64,000 nucleotides of DNA from a virus. The position numbers and the translations under genes were made by a program. The stretch covers positions 32,001-96,000 of the IMG/VR virus record IMGVR_UViG_3300008448_000009. The stretch is one strand, 5' to 3'. Numbering within the stretch: position 1 is the stretch's first letter; every line of letters starts with the position of its first letter. The notes under the pieces are model-generated. The model saw only the letters and a list, made by a program, of their open reading frames with translations. It was not told where the DNA came from and did no database searches. Shown piece after piece: positions 29,115 through 59,323 of the stretch.

Positions 29115-30989
29115 TTATCTTAATTCGTTGATGTTAAATGTTTGAACACCGTCAACTCTTAAGTGACCATAGAAACGGTTGTTTACGACTTTTTTCGCGT
29201 AACGAGTCATAATACCTTTCACTGGAGCGAAGTTGAATGGGTTATACATTGTAGGTGTCAATTGTAATGGCACGTATGGAGCATAGATGTATCCAGTGTC
29301 TAACAATGATTTACCTTTGTGACCAATGATGATAGAGTAAGATGGTGCATAAGGGTCACGGTACACTTGGTAACGTCCACTTAAAGAACCGATTCTTTCA
29401 ATACCCATGTTGTATTGGTCTTGCTCTGGGTTAGCGTCACTTACGTGGAAGTATTCTAAGTCATCAAAGATAGCTGAGATTTCTGAAGATACTACGATAA
29501 AGTTAGCACCACCTCTAAGAGTTGATTTATGGATTTGAGCAGAGATTTGGTTTAATTTAGTAATTAAAGTTTGGTTCCACTCTTTTTGTGTGTATGGTGC
29601 AGCAGCATTACCTGTAGCTTTTCTCCATCCGTTGTAGTCCCAACGTAATTGCCATGCAGCAGCTTTACGTAAGTCTCTAAGGATTTCACGGTCGATTTCA
29701 GCAGCAACTTGCTCAGAAAGCATTGCAGTTAATTCAGCTTCAGCGTCGATGTTGTGGAATGCACTAACGTCTTGCGCTAATTCTGGAGACCATGTAGCTC
29801 TTAATTTTCTTTCTTCAACTGATACTACAACTTCATCTAATCTGAAAGATACTTCTCCCATTTCAGTTTCAAGTTCTAATGTAGCGTATTCAGCCCAAGT
29901 TACTACTAAACCAGCAGTAGTTGTGATAGCAGATACAGTAGTAGCAGAAGCACCTACATAACCATCGTATGTTGCAGTACCTACAGCAGCAGCACCTGTA
30001 CCAGCAGTTGAACCAGCTGGGTGAGTCAAGTCTAACTCAATGTACATAACACCGTTTGGTGTAGTTAAGATTGGGTAACCACTAGCGTTTACGTTTTTAG
30101 TTTGAACAATACCAGTTCCATATTTTTGAGTTACAATACGGAAAGGAACTTCACCACCAGCAGCAACAACTTGGTTACCATCACGGTCTAAAATAGCGTT
30201 AGTAGAAACAACTTTCAACGAAGCCAAGAATGACTCAGTATCCATGTTGTTACCATCAGGACCAGTTAATACTTCTCTACCAGCAGCAGAACCAGCACCA
30301 CCTGTGAAACCTGAAATAGATAAAATAGCGTTTCTCACAGAACCATCAGCAGCAGTTGGGAATGAGGTACTTGGAGGTGGAACACTAAATACACCATTAG
30401 AGTTTAATGTTTGAGCGTTAGCGTTAGTAATGTTGTAAGTTACGATAGTAAGAGTACCTTTTGATTGGTCGAATAAACCATCGTTGTAGAAAATATCATA
30501 CAAGTTTTTAGCCATCCAAGGAGTTACTGTACATGTAGCATCAGCACCTTTAACACATGATGGAATACCATCATACCCCATTGAAGTGTGAGCTGAGAAA
30601 GTAGGTCCATCACCGTTATAGTAATCACCACCAACACCAGCAGCGTTTACACGCTCTGAAGTCAAAGGCACAAAGAAGAACAATTTACCGATTGGCATGT
30701 TCATAGCTTGTACTGATACAACGTCATTAGCTAATAATTTTGAGAAAACTCTACGTACAATTGGGAATACTACAGTTTCAAAAGAACCTGAGCTACCAGC
30801 AGTAGTTGATTCAGTCAATAATGAAGACGCTTGGTTTTCATATAATTGAGCGATGTTTTCTTTAACGTGGCCTCTAAGACCATCTAGGAATCCTAATGAA
30901 TCCCATTTTTGTTGAGTCTCTAAACGGATAGCCTTCATGTGGTTTAATCCGATGTTACCAACTTGTCCAGATGTTAATAAATGTGACAT
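29115..30989 (-). CDS. major capsid protein, T4 gp23-like, with large insertion
   Basis: FPIVRRVF..L.A...VSVQAM, RKLRATWSPELAQDV.AFH.IDAEAEL, EIDREIL, GYIYAPYVPL, GIMTRY. Confidence 0.95.
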   Translation of the reverse strand: MSHLLTSGQVGNIGLNHMKAIRLETQQKWDSLGFLDGLRGHVKENIAQLYENQASSLLTESTTAGSSGSFETVVFPIVRRVFSKLLANDVVSVQAMNMPIGKLFFFVPLTSERVNAAGVGGDYYNGDGPTFSAHTSMGYDGIPSCVKGADATCTVTPWMAKNLYDIFYNDGLFDQSKGTLTIVTYNITNANAQTLNSNGVFSVPPPSTSFPTAADGSVRNAILSISGFTGGAGSAAGREVLTGPDGNNMDTESFLASLKVVSTNAILDRDGNQVVAAGGEVPFRIVTQKYGTGIVQTKNVNASGYPILTTPNGVMYIELDLTHPAGSTAGTGAAAVGTATYDGYVGASATTVSAITTTAGLVVTWAEYATLELETEMGEVSFRLDEVVVSVEERKLRATWSPELAQDVSAFHNIDAEAELTAMLSEQVAAEIDREILRDLRKAAAWQLRWDYNGWRKATGNAAAPYTQKEWNQTLITKLNQISAQIHKSTLRGGANFIVVSSEISAIFDDLEYFHVSDANPEQDQYNMGIERIGSLSGRYQVYRDPYAPSYSIIIGHKGKSLLDTGYIYAPYVPLQLTPTMYNPFNFAPVKGIMTRYAKKVVNNRFYGHLRVDGVQTFNINELR

Positions 30990-33781: not shown

Positions 33782-34123
33782 TTAATGACCTAATTTACCC
33801 CAAATTGAAATAATAATTCCAACAACAATTTGTACGAAAGACATAATAGCTATAGCGGCTACCCAACGATTTTTTTGACGATACAATTCATCTTTGGCTT
33901 CCTTCATTTGACTAGGTGACCAAACGTCGTTTACCTTGGCTATCCACGATGTGTTAGCTTCAACATTTCTTTCAATATTTTTTACGTCGTTTAACTTAAG
34001 ATTCATTTCGTTAAGTTTTTTATCAATATCGGTACGCATTTTTTCTTGATTTTCAGCCAAACGTTCTAATTCTTTTAGAACTAGTTTGCTATAGTCTGCC
34101 CATGTATCTTTACTTTCAGCCAT
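33782..34123 (-). CDS. coiled-coil protein with C-terminal TM helix (possibly holin-like)
   Basis: WVAAIAIMSFVQIVVGIIISIW. Confidence 0.5.
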   Translation of the reverse strand: MAESKDTWADYSKLVLKELERLAENQEKMRTDIDKKLNEMNLKLNDVKNIERNVEANTSWIAKVNDVWSPSQMKEAKDELYRQKNRWVAAIAIMSFVQIVVGIIISIWGKLGH

Positions 34124-34129
34124 TTTTTT

Positions 34130-34363
34130 TTATAAAATTTTAATACTGTTTAATATTGTCTTTATTGTTGCACACATATTTTCATAACATTTCATTTTTG
34201 TTTTAGGTGTTGTAGATTTTTCAATCTCTATAACACCTTGTTCTACAATATTTTTTAATTGTTTAACTACTTTTTTATATTCTATTTCAGAATTTTCTTC
34301 TTCACATATTTGGTTTGTCAATTCTCTTAATTTTAGAATATTTTCACTTGGAACACTTTTCAT
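34130..34363 (-). CDS. hypothetical protein
   Basis: 77 aa ORF. Confidence 0.5.
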   Translation of the reverse strand: MKSVPSENILKLRELTNQICEEENSEIEYKKVVKQLKNIVEQGVIEIEKSTTPKTKMKCYENMCATIKTILNSIKIL

Positions 34364-41785: not shown

Positions 41786-42182
41786 GTGTTTTAATATTAT
41801 AATTCAATATTAGGTCTTTTTCATATAATTTTTCTTCAACTTCACCAATAAGTTCGCCAAATCTAAAACATAGCCTTGTCTCTGGGTAAGCATCATATGC
41901 GTTTATATTTTCCCAAGCCAAAGCTATAACACCGTCAACAGCATCCCAAACAGCAAATGTATCACTATTTTGAACAACATCCAAATTCAAATCAGACTCA
42001 AGTCTTCCAACTTTTTTGATGAATTTTTCATGTGGCGCTTCTGGTCTTCCAGATGCTGGAAACGTATCCCATTCTTCCCCATCAATGTCTTTTGTGGTAT
42101 CAGAAAAAATAAACTCGTAGATAAAGTTACCTTTGTAATCTTTACCTACTCTGTTTACATATATCAAATACATTTTATTCAT
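41772..42182 (-). CDS. hypothetical protein
   Basis: ATG 42182 (MNKMYLIY) overlaps the upstream stop. Confidence 0.6.
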   Translation of the reverse strand: MNKMYLIYVNRVGKDYKGNFIYEFIFSDTTKDIDGEEWDTFPASGRPEAPHEKFIKKVGRLESDLNLDVVQNSDTFAVWDAVDGVIALAWENINAYDAYPETRLCFRFGELIGEVEEKLYEKDLILNYNIKTHEQK

Positions 42183-44025
42183 TATTTTTAGCTTTTGGGT
42201 CTGGTTGAGTTTCAATTTCTGGCAAGAATGTTTTTTGTCTTCTTGTCGGTTGAACTGGTTGTGTTTCCGCTGGTTTTGTTTTTGGGCCAGCTGGTAATGT
42301 TTGTGGTTCCGCGTTGTTCATATTATCTTGATTTAAACTTTCGTGTAATTTATTTAACAATGTTGTTTTGTCAAATATACTAAATTTATTTGGATTTATC
42401 AAGTTTTCTTCAACTATTTTAGAAACTGGTTTCTTAGACCACATTTTACATGACCAATATTTAGGTTTTGTTCTGTCTTTAGCTTGAGCACATTTATGTC
42501 TAGCTCTAAAAGATTTTCTTCTTTTTGGGTCATCTCTTTTGATTTCCATATTAGGGTCACCAAAATTAACTTTTACCACATTACCTTTTTTGTTTCTAAC
42601 ATAAACTTTGAATTTTTTAACATCACCTTTCATTGGTTTACCTAATGGTTTCCCATCATATTTTCCTTCAGCCACCATACGTTCAACATTACCATATTCA
42701 TCCTCATAACCACCTTCAGTATCACCATCATAAGCGTTTAAAGTGTTGGCTAAGAAATGGTAAACTTCTTCCATATCATCATTAGCTGTCGCAATGTGGT
42801 CCAAAGCCCAACCATGACCGTCTGAAAGAATTCTATCAACCATGTTTTTATCCATATCTAATAATTCACCAGAAGCGTGTGCTATGGTTTTAAGGCTAGA
42901 CCAAAACATATAATTGTTTGATTCACCCATATTACCTTCCATCATACCATCAGTTTCTAAGTTTCCTTCTAAGAAATGGTATACTTCTTCAATATCGTCT
43001 TTAGATGTAATAACATGTTCAAAAGCCCATTGATGACCGTCAGCAATCAATCTATCAACCTCTGATTTATCCATATTCAACATTTCCATAGCATCATCAT
43101 GAATACCTTTAAGATTTAACCAAAACATATAATTGTTTGATTCACCTTCAATTTCTTCGGTCAATTTATTCCATTGTTTTTTGTCTGGATAATCTTCATC
43201 ACCTGGTTTTGCTGGTGATTCACCTCTTTCTCTTTTAGCACGAATATTATCCCATAATCCTTTTTCTTCATCTAAATTTTCATCGATTGGAACACAATTT
43301 GGAACTTCTTTACCATTCTTTTCCTTCATACCAACTTGTTTGTATCCTTTCCAACATGGTTTATTCTCTTCAAGTCTATTTTCTTCCATAAACTCTGGAC
43401 TACCTTCAGGTGCGAAAATACTCATTCTTTTTGGGTTTTCCAAAAATAAATCTTCATTCTCATAAATTTGATAAGTATTTTCTCCAAGGTCTTCTTCATC
43501 TGATGAAAAATCAAAATCATCGTCAGCAGCAGCCCCGTCATCGGGTCCACCTTGAGTATCATTTCCAAAATCGGTGTTATCCTGATTATCCGAACCAGAA
43601 TCTTGTGCGTCATCTTTACCAGCGCTATTAATTTTTTTAATTATATCTTTTCTGTCGTTTTCATCCATTTCAGATGTGTGAGTCGCAGATATCACCGAGT
43701 TTATTGCAAACTTCTCTAAATCAAAATCTGGTTGACCAGATTCTTCAGAATAGCTTCTTAATGATTGACCTAATTTACCACTCAACTGTTCAATGAATTT
43801 TTTTGGGTCTGTTTCTTCATCAGCATCAACACCCGCATCAAATGGTTCTTTGTCAAATGGTGCGTCGTTTGCTGGAGCAGCTTCTTCCTCACCACCAAAA
43901 TCGCCAAAACCAGCGTCATCAGCTGGTTCTGTCATAGGTTCAGCTGGAGCAGGTGCAGGCGCAGCGGGTGCCGCTGGTGCAGGTTTGTCCAACTTTAATG
44001 TGTATTTTTTAGCTTCGTTTAAAGT
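42175..44025 (-). CDS. C-terminal part of a frameshifted modular head polyprotein
   Basis: Frame open from the A10 run (TLNEAKKYTLKLDKPAP...); annotated start is only an internal TTG. Confidence 0.7.
   Translation of the reverse strand, partial: TLNEAKKYTLKLDKPAPAAPAAPAPAPAEPMTEPADDAGFGDFGGEEEAAPANDAPFDKEPFDAGVDADEETDPKKFIEQLSGKLGQSLRSYSEESGQPDFDLEKFAINSVISATHTSEMDENDRKDIIKKINSAGKDDAQDSGSDNQDNTDFGNDTQGGPDDGAAADDDFDFSSDEEDLGENTYQIYENEDLFLENPKRMSIFAPEGSPEFMEENRLEENKPCWKGYKQVGMKEKNGKEVPNCVPIDENLDEEKGLWDNIRAKRERGESPAKPGDEDYPDKKQWNKLTEEIEGESNNYMFWLNLKGIHDDAMEMLNMDKSEVDRLIADGHQWAFEHVITSKDDIEEVYHFLEGNLETDGMMEGNMGESNNYMFWSSLKTIAHASGELLDMDKNMVDRILSDGHGWALDHIATANDDMEEVYHFLANTLNAYDGDTEGGYEDEYGNVERMVAEGKYDGKPLGKPMKGDVKKFKVYVRNKKGNVVKVNFGDPNMEIKRDDPKRRKSFRARHKCAQAKDRTKPKYWSCKMWSKKPVSKIVEENLINPNKFSIFDKTTLLNKLHESLNQDNMNNAEPQTLPAGPKTKPAETQPVQPTRRQKTFLPEIETQPDPKAKNNE
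42752..43146. repeat. 219-bp (73 aa) internal duplication
   Basis: Identical 27-mer at 42901-42927 and 43120-43146; ESNNYMFW...DGHxWA...EEVYHFL twice. Confidence 0.9.
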
Positions 44026-45299
44026 TTTTTTTTTAAATCAGCGATAGCTTCTTTAATTTCTTCAATAGACATTTCGTCAATATTCATTTCTTCATCCATG
44101 GTAGCACCAGCGATTTTATCAGCATATGTGATTTTATCTTTAGGTTCAGCCAAAGCAGCAAATTCTTTATCTTTATCTGACATTTCTTCATTAACATCTG
44201 GATATTGTCTGTTAAAGTAATCTCTAGCTTTATCCATACCAGTAGACAATTTTTGAGAAATAACATTTTTCAAATCTCTACCAGCATCACCTAACAATTG
44301 AAGTAATTCAGCAGCAGACATATTGTCTAATCTATCCATCAATTCATCATTTGACATCTCATCTTCTTCGTTCATGTTTCTTAACATAGACAAATCGTCA
44401 CCATCAATTTTACCATTGTGGTTCATATCAATTTTACTTTGATTACCGTGTAGTTCTTCTTCCATGTAACTTTCATCATACATGTTTTCTTCCATGTAAC
44501 TTTCATCATACATGTTTTCTTCCATGTAACCTTCATCAGTTTTTTCAAAAGTTTCTGGGTTTCTACCTTGTTTGTTAGCAGTAGCGTAATAAACTTCTTC
44601 ACCTTTATCGGCACCATATTGGTCTTTCATTTTGTCCATAACTGGTTTATCAAATTCTAACATGCTGTCGATATATTTTTCTTCTTCAGTCATTTCCATA
44701 TCATCACCAAACATACCTTCATCAACAAATCCGTTGCCTGTCATTTCAGCAAATCCAGCCCAACCTTCGTCAATTTTTTTAACTTTTTCAATGTCGTTTT
44801 TAGTTTTACCGTTAGCCAAGTTATCACCAAAACCATCTTCTTCAGAACCTTCTTTAGACTCTTGTTTTAAGTCATGACCTTTTTTGTCTACAATGTGTTT
44901 AGACGCAAAGTTTTCTTCGTTCAACAAATCATCGTCTTCAAATACGTTGATGTTGCTATCTGTACCATAAGCTTCTGCCAAAGATTTAAACGTTAAGTTT
45001 AAATGTTTAGTTGCTTTAGCATATGATGGATAAGCTTCTTTCTTTTTGTTTTGCAAACCACCAATGTATTTAAAATCTTCAGTTACAAGTTTTGAAGTTT
45101 TATCTGATACTTTTATGTAATATTCGTGATTTTCTCTAACGATAGCGTAAGCTTTACCGTCTGGACCCATTTTAGTCAATTCAATAACTGAACGAGAAAC
45201 ATTTTCATTGATAGGTGTAATACCCATAAGTTGTTTCATACGTTCATTGATTTCGTTTCCTTTTAAACCAACTGGGTTAATTTTAAAATCTTTTTTCAT
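44019..45299 (-). CDS. acidic modular head protein, N-terminal part of the frameshift fusion
   Basis: Ends GAT TTA AAA AAA AAA CTT TAA; EF-hand-like DMNHNGKIDGDD module. Confidence 0.75.
   Translation of the reverse strand: MKKDFKINPVGLKGNEINERMKQLMGITPINENVSRSVIELTKMGPDGKAYAIVRENHEYYIKVSDKTSKLVTEDFKYIGGLQNKKKEAYPSYAKATKHLNLTFKSLAEAYGTDSNINVFEDDDLLNEENFASKHIVDKKGHDLKQESKEGSEEDGFGDNLANGKTKNDIEKVKKIDEGWAGFAEMTGNGFVDEGMFGDDMEMTEEEKYIDSMLEFDKPVMDKMKDQYGADKGEEVYYATANKQGRNPETFEKTDEGYMEENMYDESYMEENMYDESYMEEELHGNQSKIDMNHNGKIDGDDLSMLRNMNEEDEMSNDELMDRLDNMSAAELLQLLGDAGRDLKNVISQKLSTGMDKARDYFNRQYPDVNEEMSDKDKEFAALAEPKDKITYADKIAGATMDEEMNIDEMSIEEIKEAIADLKKKL
44457..44530. repeat. 30-bp coding tandem repeat, ~2.4 copies (YMEENMYDES)
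   Basis: TCCATGTAACTTTCATCATACATGTTTTCT at 44461 and 44491. Confidence 0.9.
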
Positions 45300-45628: not shown

Positions 45629-45844
45629 TTATATAGTATCTAAAAGATTATCTAAAAGATTATCTAATTCATTTGGAGAATTGTTTTCGTTGCAAACAAC
45701 ACCAAAAGAACTTAACCTATCTTTTAATTCGTCTAAACTATTAAAATATTCTAAATTAGGTTGACCAGTTGAAACAACTTGACCATCATTAAGTTCACAA
45801 TAGTGAAATATATCTATTGAATTATGTGCTAAAAAATATGTCAT
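45629..45844 (-). CDS. small hypothetical protein coupled to the DUF285 gene
   Basis: TAATG overlap at 45842-45846 (MTYFLAH...). Confidence 0.55.
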   Translation of the reverse strand: MTYFLAHNSIDIFHYCELNDGQVVSTGQPNLEYFNSLDELKDRLSSFGVVCNENNSPNELDNLLDNLLDTI

Positions 45845-48258
45845 TATACTAATCCTCCATCTATTATTGTCCAATTGTTAGGTGCCGATGTTAATGTATT
45901 TCTAGCTGAAACGGCTGCGCTAGTATATTTTATTGTACCCATATTCAATAATTGGTTAGGTCTTACATTCCTAGTAGCCCAGCCAATCAACAAGGCATCA
46001 TAATTTGCTGTTGAATAGTCATTAAATGTTTTACCAAACATAAAACCAGTTGTAAAACCACTTGAACTAAACGTAGTCACACCACTTATATTCCAATTGT
46101 TGATTGGTTGATTGAAACCAGTTTGATAATTAAACATGTCTGTAGCACCAGTTAATCGTCTAACATCCCAGTTATTTATTGAAGGTGAATTTCCGTTGTT
46201 AAATGACCCAATAATTCCACCAGTTGTATTTGGGTTGGTAATACCAAACATGATAGACATAGTAGTAACACCAGAAACTGTCCATGCAGAATAACTAGAC
46301 CCACTAACTGTAACTTGTTTTGTTCCTATATCTTGATTAAAATTAGGTTGGTTTTGAAACATTTGAGACATATTTGTAACCCTTCTAGTATCCCAATTTC
46401 CAATGTTTTGGTTAAAACTACCAGATAATCTACCAGCTGTTGCTGGGCTATAACAAAAAAACATAAAATTCATAGTAGTTGCACTTGTTGTATTCCACGC
46501 AACATATGATGAACCACTAATTGTAACTACCTTTGTTGAAATATCTTGATTAAAATAAGGTAGACCTGTAAACATTTGAGTCATATTTGTAACTCTGGTA
46601 GTATTCCAATTTCCAATGTTTTGATTAAACTCACCATCAATAACAATATTATTAAATATAAGACCCATATTAGTAACGTTAGATGTATTCCACGCAACAT
46701 ATGAAGACCCACTAACTGTAACTACCTTTGTTGATATATTTTGGTTGAAATTAGGTTGGTTTTGGAACATACTACTCATATTTGTAACTCTACTTGTGTT
46801 CCAGTTTCCTATATTTTGATTAAAAGACCCCGTTGTAGGTGAAGAACAATTAAACGCACTGGCAAAATTAGTAACATTACCAACATCCCATGCAACATAA
46901 GAAGACCCACTAACTGTAACAACTTTTGTTGATATATCTTGATTAAAATTTATTTTATTTCCAAAAATAGCTTGCATCGTTGTTACCTTGCTAGTATTCC
47001 AATTTCCAATGTTTTGGTTAAACAATCCGTTAGTAGCAGTTCCACCTTGAAAAAAATTCATATTAGTAACATTACTAGTATCCCAAGCAATATAGTTATT
47101 TGAACCCACAGTAACAACTTTAGTCGATATATCTTGGTTGAAATTTATTTGGCTTTGGAACATAGCACTCATATTTGTAACTTTGCTAGTATTCCAATTT
47201 CCAATGTTTTGGTTAAAAGAACCACCAACACCACCAGTGATACTTAATCCAAACATAAAATTCATATCAGTAACATTACTTGTATCCCATGCAATATAAG
47301 AAGTACTACCAACTGTAACTACTTTGGTTGATATATCTTGGTTGAAATTATATTGGTTTTGTAACATACTACTCATATTTGTAACCTTACTAGTGTTCCA
47401 TTTTGATATATCTTGATTAAAAACACCCCTAATACCAAGAGCCATTGTTGTTCCAAAAGCTAATGTCATTGTAGTCACATTTTCAGTATTCCAATCACCA
47501 ATATATGTATTAAAATTAGGTGATTCAAAAAAAGTACTGTTTAAAGTGTTGACATTACTAACATCCCATTCGTTCATTCTATTAACAGTAGAAAGTCTAG
47601 TACATGCTCTAAAAAGACTTCCAAAGTTTGTAGTACCCTGTAAATTTAAAACATCTTCAACTTCAGATAAATCTAAATTAGCACAACCAAAAAATTGCCC
47701 ATTCACATCGCCCAACCTAAAACCAGTACCCCATCTAAATATAGATAACAATTTAAGTCTATCACCAGCGTTTACAAAACCAAACCCTCGTATTGTTCCA
47801 GTTATAGTCAACTGATAAACACCAGCACTTGCGTATGTGTGAGTTGTTTCAGCTTGATTCCACGTGGTAATTCTATCAGTGCTTCCATCACCCCAATCAA
47901 CAATAAAGTTATAACTACCAGCAGAATTCAACGGTAATCTAATTTGTGTAGCAGTGCTACTACCAGTGCTAGTTCTAGAAGTGTCCCAAACACTCACAAA
48001 GGTTTGAGGGACATATTTGTATTGTAGTGAATCACCAAAAACATATGGTCTATCACCAGATACTGAACACCCAGTTCCACCACTTATTGACTTAACTATA
48101 ATATCAATAGTCGAATTTGGACCCATTTGAACAGTTGTACCATTTATGTTAACAGTACAACCAGTAAGACCACCGTATACTTGGTTATAAACTAATTGGT
48201 ATAGAAATGCATCTTGAGCTGGAACTATAAAATTGTTAATATTATTATTAAAAGGCAT
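45844..48258 (-). CDS. BspA/DUF285 repeat protein with PKD-like domain (candidate fibre/adhesin)
   Basis: VDWGDGS..THTYASAGVY PKD motif; FNQxIxxWxTSxVTNMxxMF repeats. Confidence 0.85.
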   Translation of the reverse strand: MPFNNNINNFIVPAQDAFLYQLVYNQVYGGLTGCTVNINGTTVQMGPNSTIDIIVKSISGGTGCSVSGDRPYVFGDSLQYKYVPQTFVSVWDTSRTSTGSSTATQIRLPLNSAGSYNFIVDWGDGSTDRITTWNQAETTHTYASAGVYQLTITGTIRGFGFVNAGDRLKLLSIFRWGTGFRLGDVNGQFFGCANLDLSEVEDVLNLQGTTNFGSLFRACTRLSTVNRMNEWDVSNVNTLNSTFFESPNFNTYIGDWNTENVTTMTLAFGTTMALGIRGVFNQDISKWNTSKVTNMSSMLQNQYNFNQDISTKVVTVGSTSYIAWDTSNVTDMNFMFGLSITGGVGGSFNQNIGNWNTSKVTNMSAMFQSQINFNQDISTKVVTVGSNNYIAWDTSNVTNMNFFQGGTATNGLFNQNIGNWNTSKVTTMQAIFGNKINFNQDISTKVVTVSGSSYVAWDVGNVTNFASAFNCSSPTTGSFNQNIGNWNTSRVTNMSSMFQNQPNFNQNISTKVVTVSGSSYVAWNTSNVTNMGLIFNNIVIDGEFNQNIGNWNTTRVTNMTQMFTGLPYFNQDISTKVVTISGSSYVAWNTTSATTMNFMFFCYSPATAGRLSGSFNQNIGNWDTRRVTNMSQMFQNQPNFNQDIGTKQVTVSGSSYSAWTVSGVTTMSIMFGITNPNTTGGIIGSFNNGNSPSINNWDVRRLTGATDMFNYQTGFNQPINNWNISGVTTFSSSGFTTGFMFGKTFNDYSTANYDALLIGWATRNVRPNQLLNMGTIKYTSAAVSARNTLTSAPNNWTIIDGGLV
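46130..47590. repeat. ~200-bp coding tandem repeats of the DUF285 solenoid
   Basis: Six copies of FNQ(D/N)IxTKxVT(V/I)xxxxYxAW alternating with FNQNIGNW units. Confidence 0.85.
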
Positions 48259-58263: not shown

Positions 58264-58727
58264 CCTGTGTATTCATGACTGAAACAAATTCTCTTGTTAT
58301 CAAAATAATGTTCTTTGAACATATTTTTAACAGACACATCTTTTCTTAATTTTTTATTTTTGCTAGTGGCAACCCATAAATCAGAATGTTCTCGGTAATA
58401 TCCCATCCTAGGGTGTGCGGTTCTTGAAAAATACCTATGACCTTCATCTATGTGTATTTGAGCGATAGCATCAGAAAATCTAACACCAATACCCATACCT
58501 TGAAAATCTGGCAATATAACTGTTCTATGCCCTCTCCACGCGTTTTTTAACGTACCACTAGGCATAGTTATAGCAGCCCCAAACGCCACAACATGTCCTT
58601 CCCATACACCAACATAGCATCTGGCCGCTTTATTCACATTTCCATCTAAATAATGGTGGTCTTTAAACATTCCCCAACTATCATAGTTTGTGCGATATAT
58701 GTCAAGTTTGATTTGTGGGCGGGCAAA
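58254..58727 (-). CDS. GNAT (Mom-like) acetyltransferase domain, -1 frame partner of the ABC ATPase
   Basis: ARPQIKLDIY...FKDHHYL...RTVILPDFQGMGIG...TAHP. Confidence 0.75.
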   Translation of the reverse strand, partial: FARPQIKLDIYRTNYDSWGMFKDHHYLDGNVNKAARCYVGVWEGHVVAFGAAITMPSGTLKNAWRGHRTVILPDFQGMGIGVRFSDAIAQIHIDEGHRYFSRTAHPRMGYYREHSDLWVATSKNKKLRKDVSVKNMFKEHYFDNKRICFSHEYTGKK

Positions 58728-59323
58728 AAAAAACCGTCCATCAGTTCTCCTGTGTCCGTATCAATAACCCAATCAGGTTCCAACCAATTCAATATATCAC
58801 GGTGGCATGTTGATATAACCACATTTTCAATTTCGTTATTTTTGATATACCTAGATAACGATACACTGGCCGCTTTAGCCACAGCTCTATCAACCACACT
58901 ACTAAACTCATCAATGACAGCACCAGTTTTAATTTTACGCGCTAAATCAGCTCTAAACTTTTCTCCGTTAGATAACACATTGTAAGGTTTGTACCATGAA
59001 GGTACAGAATTCAACCCGACACTACCTAATTTATTTATGGCTTCATCTGGTTCATCAAAATGTGATACTATAGATTTATTTGGGTCCCATTGTGGGGTTT
59101 CTTCAATTCCAAAGTTTTTTAAAAGTGTTGATTTACCAGAACCACTAGAACCAACAATAACACCTAGTTTAAATTTTTTAGGAATACTAGCTGGCAATTG
59201 CCATGGATAAAATTTTGAAGTACCGTCAAAAGCGCAATCAAACGCTTTTTCACTAGCAGCAATAAAATCATCACGTTCCACACTTGAAGTAAGAGGTGTG
59301 GTCTCTTTTGTTAGTTTTTCCAT
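58646..59323 (-). CDS. soluble ABC-type ATPase
   Basis: GSSGSGKST, LSNGEKFRA, IDEFSSVVDR and CH motifs. Confidence 0.85.
   Translation of the reverse strand: MEKLTKETTPLTSSVERDDFIAASEKAFDCAFDGTSKFYPWQLPASIPKKFKLGVIVGSSGSGKSTLLKNFGIEETPQWDPNKSIVSHFDEPDEAINKLGSVGLNSVPSWYKPYNVLSNGEKFRADLARKIKTGAVIDEFSSVVDRAVAKAASVSLSRYIKNNEIENVVISTCHRDILNWLEPDWVIDTDTGELMDGFFLPAHKSNLTYIAQTMIVGECLKTTII

Follow-up and report, generated by a model that had tools for sequence, protein, structure and literature searches.

The slip site of the Thermus thermophilus dnaX gene is a homopolymer of nine. Slippage of RNA polymerase at this gene adds bases to the transcript and gives rise to the tau and gamma isoforms, as described in PMC5009743. 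The same paper credits transcriptional slippage in spa13, mxiE and other Shigella type III secretion genes with extending the C-terminus of 25-30% of the product. It also covers E. coli dnaX, the orfA-orfB genes of insertion sequence (IS) elements and phage lambda G/GT, which share a -1 offset, an in-phase A heptamer and a close zero-frame stop (PMC5009743). These last three features recur at the locus described here. The locus is carried by a 64-kb window of viral DNA, by which we mean the whole stretch analyzed (bases 32001-96000 of IMG/VR record IMGVR_UViG_3300008448_000009, a single 119,281-bp contig with 32.8% GC). On the minus strand of the window, two open reading frames (ORFs), designated A and B, meet at a run of ten adenosines (A10). 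Comparative evidence indicates that ORF A and the -1 frame that continues from it almost certainly form one gene whose expression depends on programmed recoding.

ORF A (44019-45299, minus strand) begins with ATG and encodes 426 amino acids (aa) ending in ...ADLKKKL. The minus-strand junction is ...GCT GAT TTA AAA AAA AAA CTT TAA, with A10 at 44025-44034 and the zero-frame codons TTA AAA AAA AAA. The TAA stop codon (44021-44019) is located 3 nt past the run, and ORF A ends one codon beyond Lys-Lys-Lys. The -1 frame opens 3 nt ahead of A10, after a TGA at 44040-44038, and reads FKKKTLNEAKKYTLKLDKPAP.... From there, part B extends for 620 codons (42175-44037, minus strand) with the appearance of beads on a string, and it would provide the C-terminal 616 residues of a fusion protein. 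Both frames are open across just 16 nt (44022-44037), between the TGA and the TAA and with the run included, and the third frame shuts shortly past A10. Moving one base back, or adding one A, creates a reading frame of 425 + 616 = 1041 residues. The original prediction, which was made from the sequence alone, had joined the two ORFs at A10 through an overlap confined to the slippery run. Its coordinates, frames and stops were confirmed on the minus strand, and its arithmetic for the fusion is right.

The sole nearby start-like codon of the -1 frame is a TTG at 43990-43992 (minus strand), and the ORF called from this codon is 605 aa long. Within a conserved K-Y-x-L-K-L motif, this TTG encodes Leu, and it is not a conserved start. 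At the junction, the -1 frame encodes the peptide TLNEAKKYTLKL (43990-44025, minus strand), which conforms to the family pattern [LIV]-x-E...K-[YF]-x-L-K and is encoded upstream of any conserved start codon.

Among 8000 candidates scored, 2760 proteins were related to B at E<=0.001. In IMG/VR, 275 stretches encode a B relative, and 79 distinct loci were kept. An A homologue is present upstream in 69 of these, and the remaining 10 are cut at contig ends or have one part missing. In all 69 two-part loci, the frame of B is offset by -1 from that of A, and an A run lies within an overlap of 10-61 nt. Ten further, newly found loci all have the -1 offset and all have A10, which brings the total to 79/79 two-part loci. 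The split after Lys-Lys-Lys and the accompanying run, which the original prediction had proposed as a feature to look for in related phages, are therefore kept throughout.

Run lengths were measured in 70 loci, the window included. Most (61/70) have A10 in the phase NNA AAA AAA AAA, one has A10 in another phase, six have A9 starting at a codon boundary, and two have A11, both of which also retain the -1 relation. The 70 loci comprise 54 distinct junction sequences, with protein identity down to ~40%, and the only invariant columns in their alignment are those of the A9 core, to which the run in the window conforms. AAG never breaks the run in any of the 70 loci, though just K-K-K is needed by the protein. 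The zero frame always encodes K-K-K and then stops within 1-10 codons. The -1 frame always enters the conserved peptide [LIV]-x-E ... K-[YF]-x-L-K-[LIV], which is followed by an Ala/Pro-rich linker.

Start codons for a separate B protein are poorly conserved. No ATG, GTG or TTG is present at or before the motif in 25 of the 54 junctions, only TTG or GTG is available in another 25, and ATG occurs in four. In 16/54 junctions, a start codon is wholly missing up to the conserved B domain. The "M" with which B homologues begin in databases (e.g., MKLPAPAG...) corresponds to the TTG Leu codon of the conserved motif. The gene is split in every database record seen, and B has been given false TTG starts. 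Because gene callers split the gene and assign these starts, thousands of entries are misannotated.

When longer proteins were sought with the sequence of A, three continuous A-B proteins were identified, P0121 (791 aa), P0122 (805 aa) and P0123 (754 aa). P0121 aligns with the -1 frame from its first residue (46% identity, E 9e-47); its DNA was not found among the IMG/VR loci, where the best matches have 68-75% identity. The joint of P0122 and P0123 reads ...LKKKGLTE.... A simple A11 would encode Ser, not Gly, and thus these two proteins, as judged from their peptides and not from DNA, probably differ from the split form by more than a change in run length.

These observations bear on three explanations that require no programmed recoding. 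Homopolymers are error-prone in some sequencing chemistries, and the junction could reflect a sequencing or assembly error, or else a decaying pseudogene. However, the same break is present in 79/79 independently assembled relatives, and both halves of the gene are clearly conserved at the protein level. The original prediction had listed A10 versus A11 as a point to check, and independent DNA contigs show A10, not A11. This comparison used assembled contigs, which drop rare variants, and stretches left uncovered carry no information; within these bounds, the DNA contigs of three studies that cover the run contain no insertion, and over 43795-44486 one of these contigs shows 0 differences. We consider the chance of an error or a pseudogene to be close to negligible. 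If A and B were instead two independent genes, with B starting at TTG 43992 and A10 incidental, then the presence of TTG in the window and in 25/54 distinct junctions would be accounted for, as would the listing of B homologues by gene callers as separate proteins of 470-840 aa. Such genes would scatter over three offsets, whereas the -1 offset is found in 79/79 loci. Moreover, the TTG encodes a Leu of the conserved motif, the conserved peptide extends upstream of it, 25/54 junctions have no start at or before the motif and 16/54 have none before the conserved domain, and a G-rich ribosome-binding motif is not evident just upstream of the TTG. Independent initiation of B is thus highly improbable. 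Homopolymers of this length are also hot spots for replication slippage. Phase variation at the DNA level would generate a mixture of A10 and A11 genomes, of which only the A11 genomes would make the fusion, and both the two A11 loci among 70 and the continuity of P0121 across the junction are in keeping with this possibility. Against it, the -1 relation persists in both A11 loci, 79/79 assemblies are out of frame, and no insertion appears in contigs of three DNA runs, though contigs drop rare variants. In addition, a virus that needs both products in each cell would presumably gain little from a switch in its population. Phase variation is therefore also a very improbable explanation. Taken together, the conserved split, the start codons, the continuous proteins and the DNA contigs make error, pseudogene decay and independent initiation very unlikely. 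They support the claim of the original prediction that ribosomal or polymerase slippage produces a short and a long product from one recoded gene.

Under programmed recoding, normal decoding would yield A of 426 aa, whereas a one-base frame change within A10 would yield a ~1041-aa fusion composed of A residues 1-425 and 616 residues of B. B would not be made separately. In the scheme that we favor, the host RNA polymerase would slip on A10, leaving some of the transcripts with one additional A, and ribosomes would read these A-inserted transcripts in the usual way. Ribosomes may contribute by -1 slippage at A10.

Ribosomal frameshift sites of the dnaX, IS and lambda G/GT type have a stimulatory RNA structure located 5-9 nt past the slip site, and the original prediction had pointed to a stem formed by AACUUUAA and UUAAAGUU. 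This stem is present and belongs to the minimum-energy fold, but a role as stimulator was rejected. Its stability is -2.9 kcal/mol (z -1.5), 16/200 shuffles fold as well or better, and it overlaps the run with no spacer. A wider region of 131 nt has a fold with z -1.3. Conservation of RNA structure is likewise not detected, since RNAalifold predicts 0 pairs for the region from -40 to +70 across the 54 distinct junctions.

The genes of this phage avoid long A runs. We compared 109 ORFs of at least 100 codons from the genome with 200 synonymous-codon shuffles. Lys is encoded by AAA in 88% of cases in these ORFs. Nevertheless, 20 of the 21 K-K-K windows carry AAG, and the sole AAA AAA AAA (14.5 expected) is the site described here. 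A runs of nine or more occur once in genes, compared with 18.5 +/- 2.2 expected, which is an ~18-fold depletion not reached in any of the 200 shuffles. The depletion grows with run length: Runs of exactly seven are found 54 times (61.5 expected) and runs of eight are found 8 times (20.4 expected). Among slippery heptamers, in-frame A_AAA_AAG is observed 9 times (7.9 expected) and in-frame A_AAA_AAA 25 times (63.9 expected). In the whole window, a search for A runs of at least nine yields 4 matches, located at 3 places, compared with 22.9 +/- 6.7 in shuffles. The presence of A10 at the junction is thus not a matter of chance. The only other 9-nt runs in the window are an A9 at 34123-34131 and a T9 at 58725-58733. 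The A9 was rejected as a recoding site, as it is part of a segment (34121-34132) made of a TAA stop codon, the A's and the ATG of the next small ORF. Outside the window, near the contig end, a region with no long ORFs (genome positions 111273-116512) contains a cluster of nine homopolymers of A or T, each 8-11 nt long.

The T9, in contrast, is situated within a split gene. An ORF at 59335-58646 (minus strand, 229 aa) encodes an ABC-type P-loop ATPase that matches positions 10-194 of phrog_11143, and the -1 frame at 58760-58254 (minus strand, 168 aa) encodes a GNAT acetyltransferase that matches positions 199-351 of the same family, whose length is 357. The T9 (58725-58733, mRNA sense) is in the overlap of these two frames. 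Both halves are present in 79 related loci. T9 is combined with the -1 offset in 59 of these, one has T8 and the -1 offset, and three have the -1 offset with no run there. The halves are in frame in three loci with T10, and also in 13 distant loci (50-56% identity) that have no run. By this comparison, the T9 of the ATPase-GNAT gene is a second conserved slip site. A possible third site is a T10 (minus-strand sense) at genome positions 103093-103102, outside the window, where minus-strand frames of 105 and 259 codons overlap (region 102356-103266). Searches of Pfam and PHROG gave no match for either frame around this T10.

The remaining question is which machine slips, and we infer that RNA polymerase slippage is the main route with only somewhat better than even confidence. 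Programmed transcriptional slippage sites have a sense-strand A or T homopolymer that equals or exceeds the RNA-DNA hybrid in length (8-9 nt), and the run fits this pattern at all 70 loci measured and at the 10 found later. The run is kept at 9-11 nt, whereas seven would be sufficient for a ribosome, and heptamers are tolerated in the genes of this genome whereas long A runs are not. According to PMC6260861, E. coli RNA polymerase has no detectable slippage below A8 or T7. The run-length threshold observed in the genes of this genome matches that of the E. coli enzyme, which favors polymerase slippage. The second window gene, in which a conserved T9 separates two frames that likewise differ by -1, also favors this route. 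In addition, the run of one metatranscriptome contig is longer by one base (A11) than the A10 of the DNA contigs. Alternatively, the mRNA would stay A10, and a fraction of ribosomes would move back one base on A_AAA_AAA through programmed frameshifting or short-range sliding. Such a mechanism would account for the zero-frame stop 1-10 codons on, as at classical ribosomal frameshift sites, and loss of frame by ribosomes on successive AAA codons has been described (PMC4363877). However, no RNA structure is conserved up- or downstream, the local stem is weak and lacks a spacer, the heptamer would be enough yet 9-11 A's are kept, and 25 A_AAA_AAA and 9 A_AAA_AAG are in-frame in ordinary genes, the latter at the expected frequency. 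Furthermore, in the E. coli PURE system the product of sliding was slight at A9 and A10 and robust only at A11, according to PMC4363877. We regard ribosomal slippage as the less likely main route.

Several observations nonetheless weigh against assigning the main role to RNA polymerase. An in-phase A_AAA_AAA heptamer is kept at every locus (70/70), so that the sequence permits slippage by ribosomes just as well. In several clades, GAAGG(G/T) or GAGGG is located 5-8 nt upstream of the run, where it could act in a Shine-Dalgarno-like manner. This motif also encodes a conserved Glu-Gly, and it is missing in the clade of the window itself (...GCTATCGCTGATTT). Avoidance of long A runs would be expected from ribosome sliding as well (PMC4363877). 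Replication slippage is also expected to give this avoidance. The E. coli threshold may also differ from that of the polymerase that transcribes this phage. The 79/79 count does not equal 79 independent events because the loci are mutually related. Finally, the metatranscriptome contig is no more than a hint because its depth is 2.5, it extends past the run by just 8 nt, and its 9 mismatches and 18-nt insertion show that it derives from a relative; its library may also hold DNA.

The two proteins offer few clues to function. The conserved N-terminal domain of A (residues 1-128; 44916-45299, minus strand) has a mean column identity of 72% over 25 aligned sequences. The AlphaFold model of this domain has an alpha/beta fold with a predicted local distance difference test score (pLDDT) of 72. 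It has no PDB match at E<=0.001, and the search of BFVD returned just two matches, both to uncharacterized phage proteins. The remainder of A, like B, is acidic and contains short conserved modules in a mostly disordered chain. An RNA-library contig from a relative goes back 96 nt at 44085-44180, inside ORF A, which suggests that a related strain carries a variant with a 96-nt tandem duplication. The model of B has a mean pLDDT of 48.7 and is too poor to search, although three-helix modules at residues 301-360 and 374-432 are predicted with confidence. Pfam gave nothing above the cut-off for A or B. PHROGs yielded no family for A and only families of unknown function for B, and ESM Atlas gave only viral hypothetical clusters, with sub-threshold matches to DUF5824, DUF6321 and Dockerin_1. 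A tblastn search with B against cultured phages produced module-sized matches in 32 records, none of which covers 80% of the protein. Some B modules recur singly in phages of Pelagibacter, Roseobacter, Flavobacterium, cyanobacteria and Methylophilales.

The cleavage motif of the T4 head protease is [LI]-x-E. B contains 11 copies of [LI]xE, compared with 6.1 +/- 2.2 expected, a modest enrichment (24/1000 shuffles are at least as high). Given the position of the gene, the architecture of the proteins, the [LIV]-x-E at the junction and this enrichment, we would guess, with low confidence, that the products are virion proteins or capsid cargo cut by the head protease. The term "head polyprotein" used in the original prediction is unproven. 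The major capsid protein, the protease and a probable scaffold are encoded by other genes, and the family, atlas and fold searches assigned no function to A or B.

The genes near A and B are those of a T4-like phage. The order on the minus strand is a DUF285-repeat protein, two small ORFs, A, B, three ORFs, the large terminase and the portal. Just upstream of the recoded gene, the 804-aa DUF285-repeat protein (45844-48258, minus strand) carries seven repeats (E 6.4e-99) and may be a host-recognition protein. The three ORFs after B (147, 347 and 424 aa) have no family match. The large terminase matches phrog_2 (E 8.8e-47), and the portal is of the T4 gp20 type (Pfam Portal_T4, E 2.3e-72). Beyond the portal, the gene for a gp21-like head protease is followed by an ORF of 447 aa and then by that for the major head protein (29115-30989, minus strand; phrog_138, E 1e-66). 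The phrog_138 match begins only at residue 347 of the 624-aa major head protein, leaving a long N-terminal part that is unexplained.

Identity between the terminase and those of isolates in the phage collection does not exceed 31%, with Microcystis and Flavobacterium myoviruses ranking highest, and a megablast search of the locus against phages gave no match. On these grounds, the source of the window is classified as an uncultured, deeply branching T4-like phage. The sequencing runs that hold its sequence are mostly labeled as freshwater metagenomes. A search for the T4-type late promoter TATAAATA was uninformative, with 18 matches compared with 11.7 +/- 3.7 expected (8/100 shuffles have as many).

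Full-text literature searches, with paper supplements outside their scope, recovered no description of this protein family or its slip site. The family is large and consists of modular, mostly disordered phage proteins encoded beside packaging genes. With one invariant element and no RNA structure, the site represents a clean natural test bed for distinguishing polymerase slippage from ribosomal slippage. A9, A10, A11 and fused forms are available as variants, as is the T9 site in the same genome. A proven case in a double-stranded DNA (dsDNA) phage would widen the list of known cases. A more speculative proposal, which we consider rather unlikely in its entirety, is that this widespread lineage of freshwater phages routinely expresses genes through polymerase slippage on homopolymers, in at least two cases (at A10 and at U9 in ATPase-GNAT), which would be the first such examples described in dsDNA phages. 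In this proposal, the short A protein would serve as a carrier, a rare fusion would bring the B modules into the capsid, and the head protease would free them at [LIV]-x-E.

Among known phage proteins, a comparison can be drawn with the internal proteins of T4 (IPI-III and Alt), which have a capsid-targeting sequence that is cut by gp21. The resemblance includes a late structural region, an encoded gp21-like protease, acidic proteins and an [LIV]-x-E after the junction. Unlike the T4 proteins, to which they have no sequence similarity, A and B are only guessed to be packaged and cleaved.

Recoding of gene 10 of T7 and T3 (10A/10B) and of the corresponding gene of Listeria phage PSA yields a minor extended form. 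In these phages, it is the major capsid protein that is recoded, whereas the capsid protein of the phage studied here is the product of a separate gene (29115-30989). A likeness would be that recoding occurs in a phage structural gene, if our guess of a structural role is correct. The original prediction regarded phage frameshifts as a matter of tail chaperones, which is incomplete because frameshifts in structural proteins of T7/T3 gene 10 and of PSA are represented in the reference list of PMC5009743. Compared with those of the tail-chaperone genes G/GT, a small pair located between the genes for the tail tube and the tape measure, the products here are of 426 and 1041 aa, have no match to a tail-chaperone family and are encoded upstream of the terminase gene. 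The site also differs from E. coli dnaX, the IS elements and lambda G/GT in having no conserved stimulatory hairpin or pseudoknot, and in having a run of 9-11 nt instead of seven.

The kind of trick proposed here, in which slippage generates a short and a long isoform, is known, as are frameshifts in phage structural genes. Like spa13 and mxiE of Shigella, the A-B gene would set a short:long ratio from two overlapping frames (PMC5009743), although the Shigella genes are bacterial plasmid genes for unrelated proteins. Like dnaX of Thermus, it would produce two isoforms with a common N-terminus from one gene, with stops nearby in the other frames (PMC5009743). The differences are that A-B is a phage late gene whose slippage is predicted from sequence comparison, and that the outcomes are reversed. 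At Thermus dnaX, slippage gives the short form and the zero frame gives the long form, whereas slippage on A10 would give the long form.

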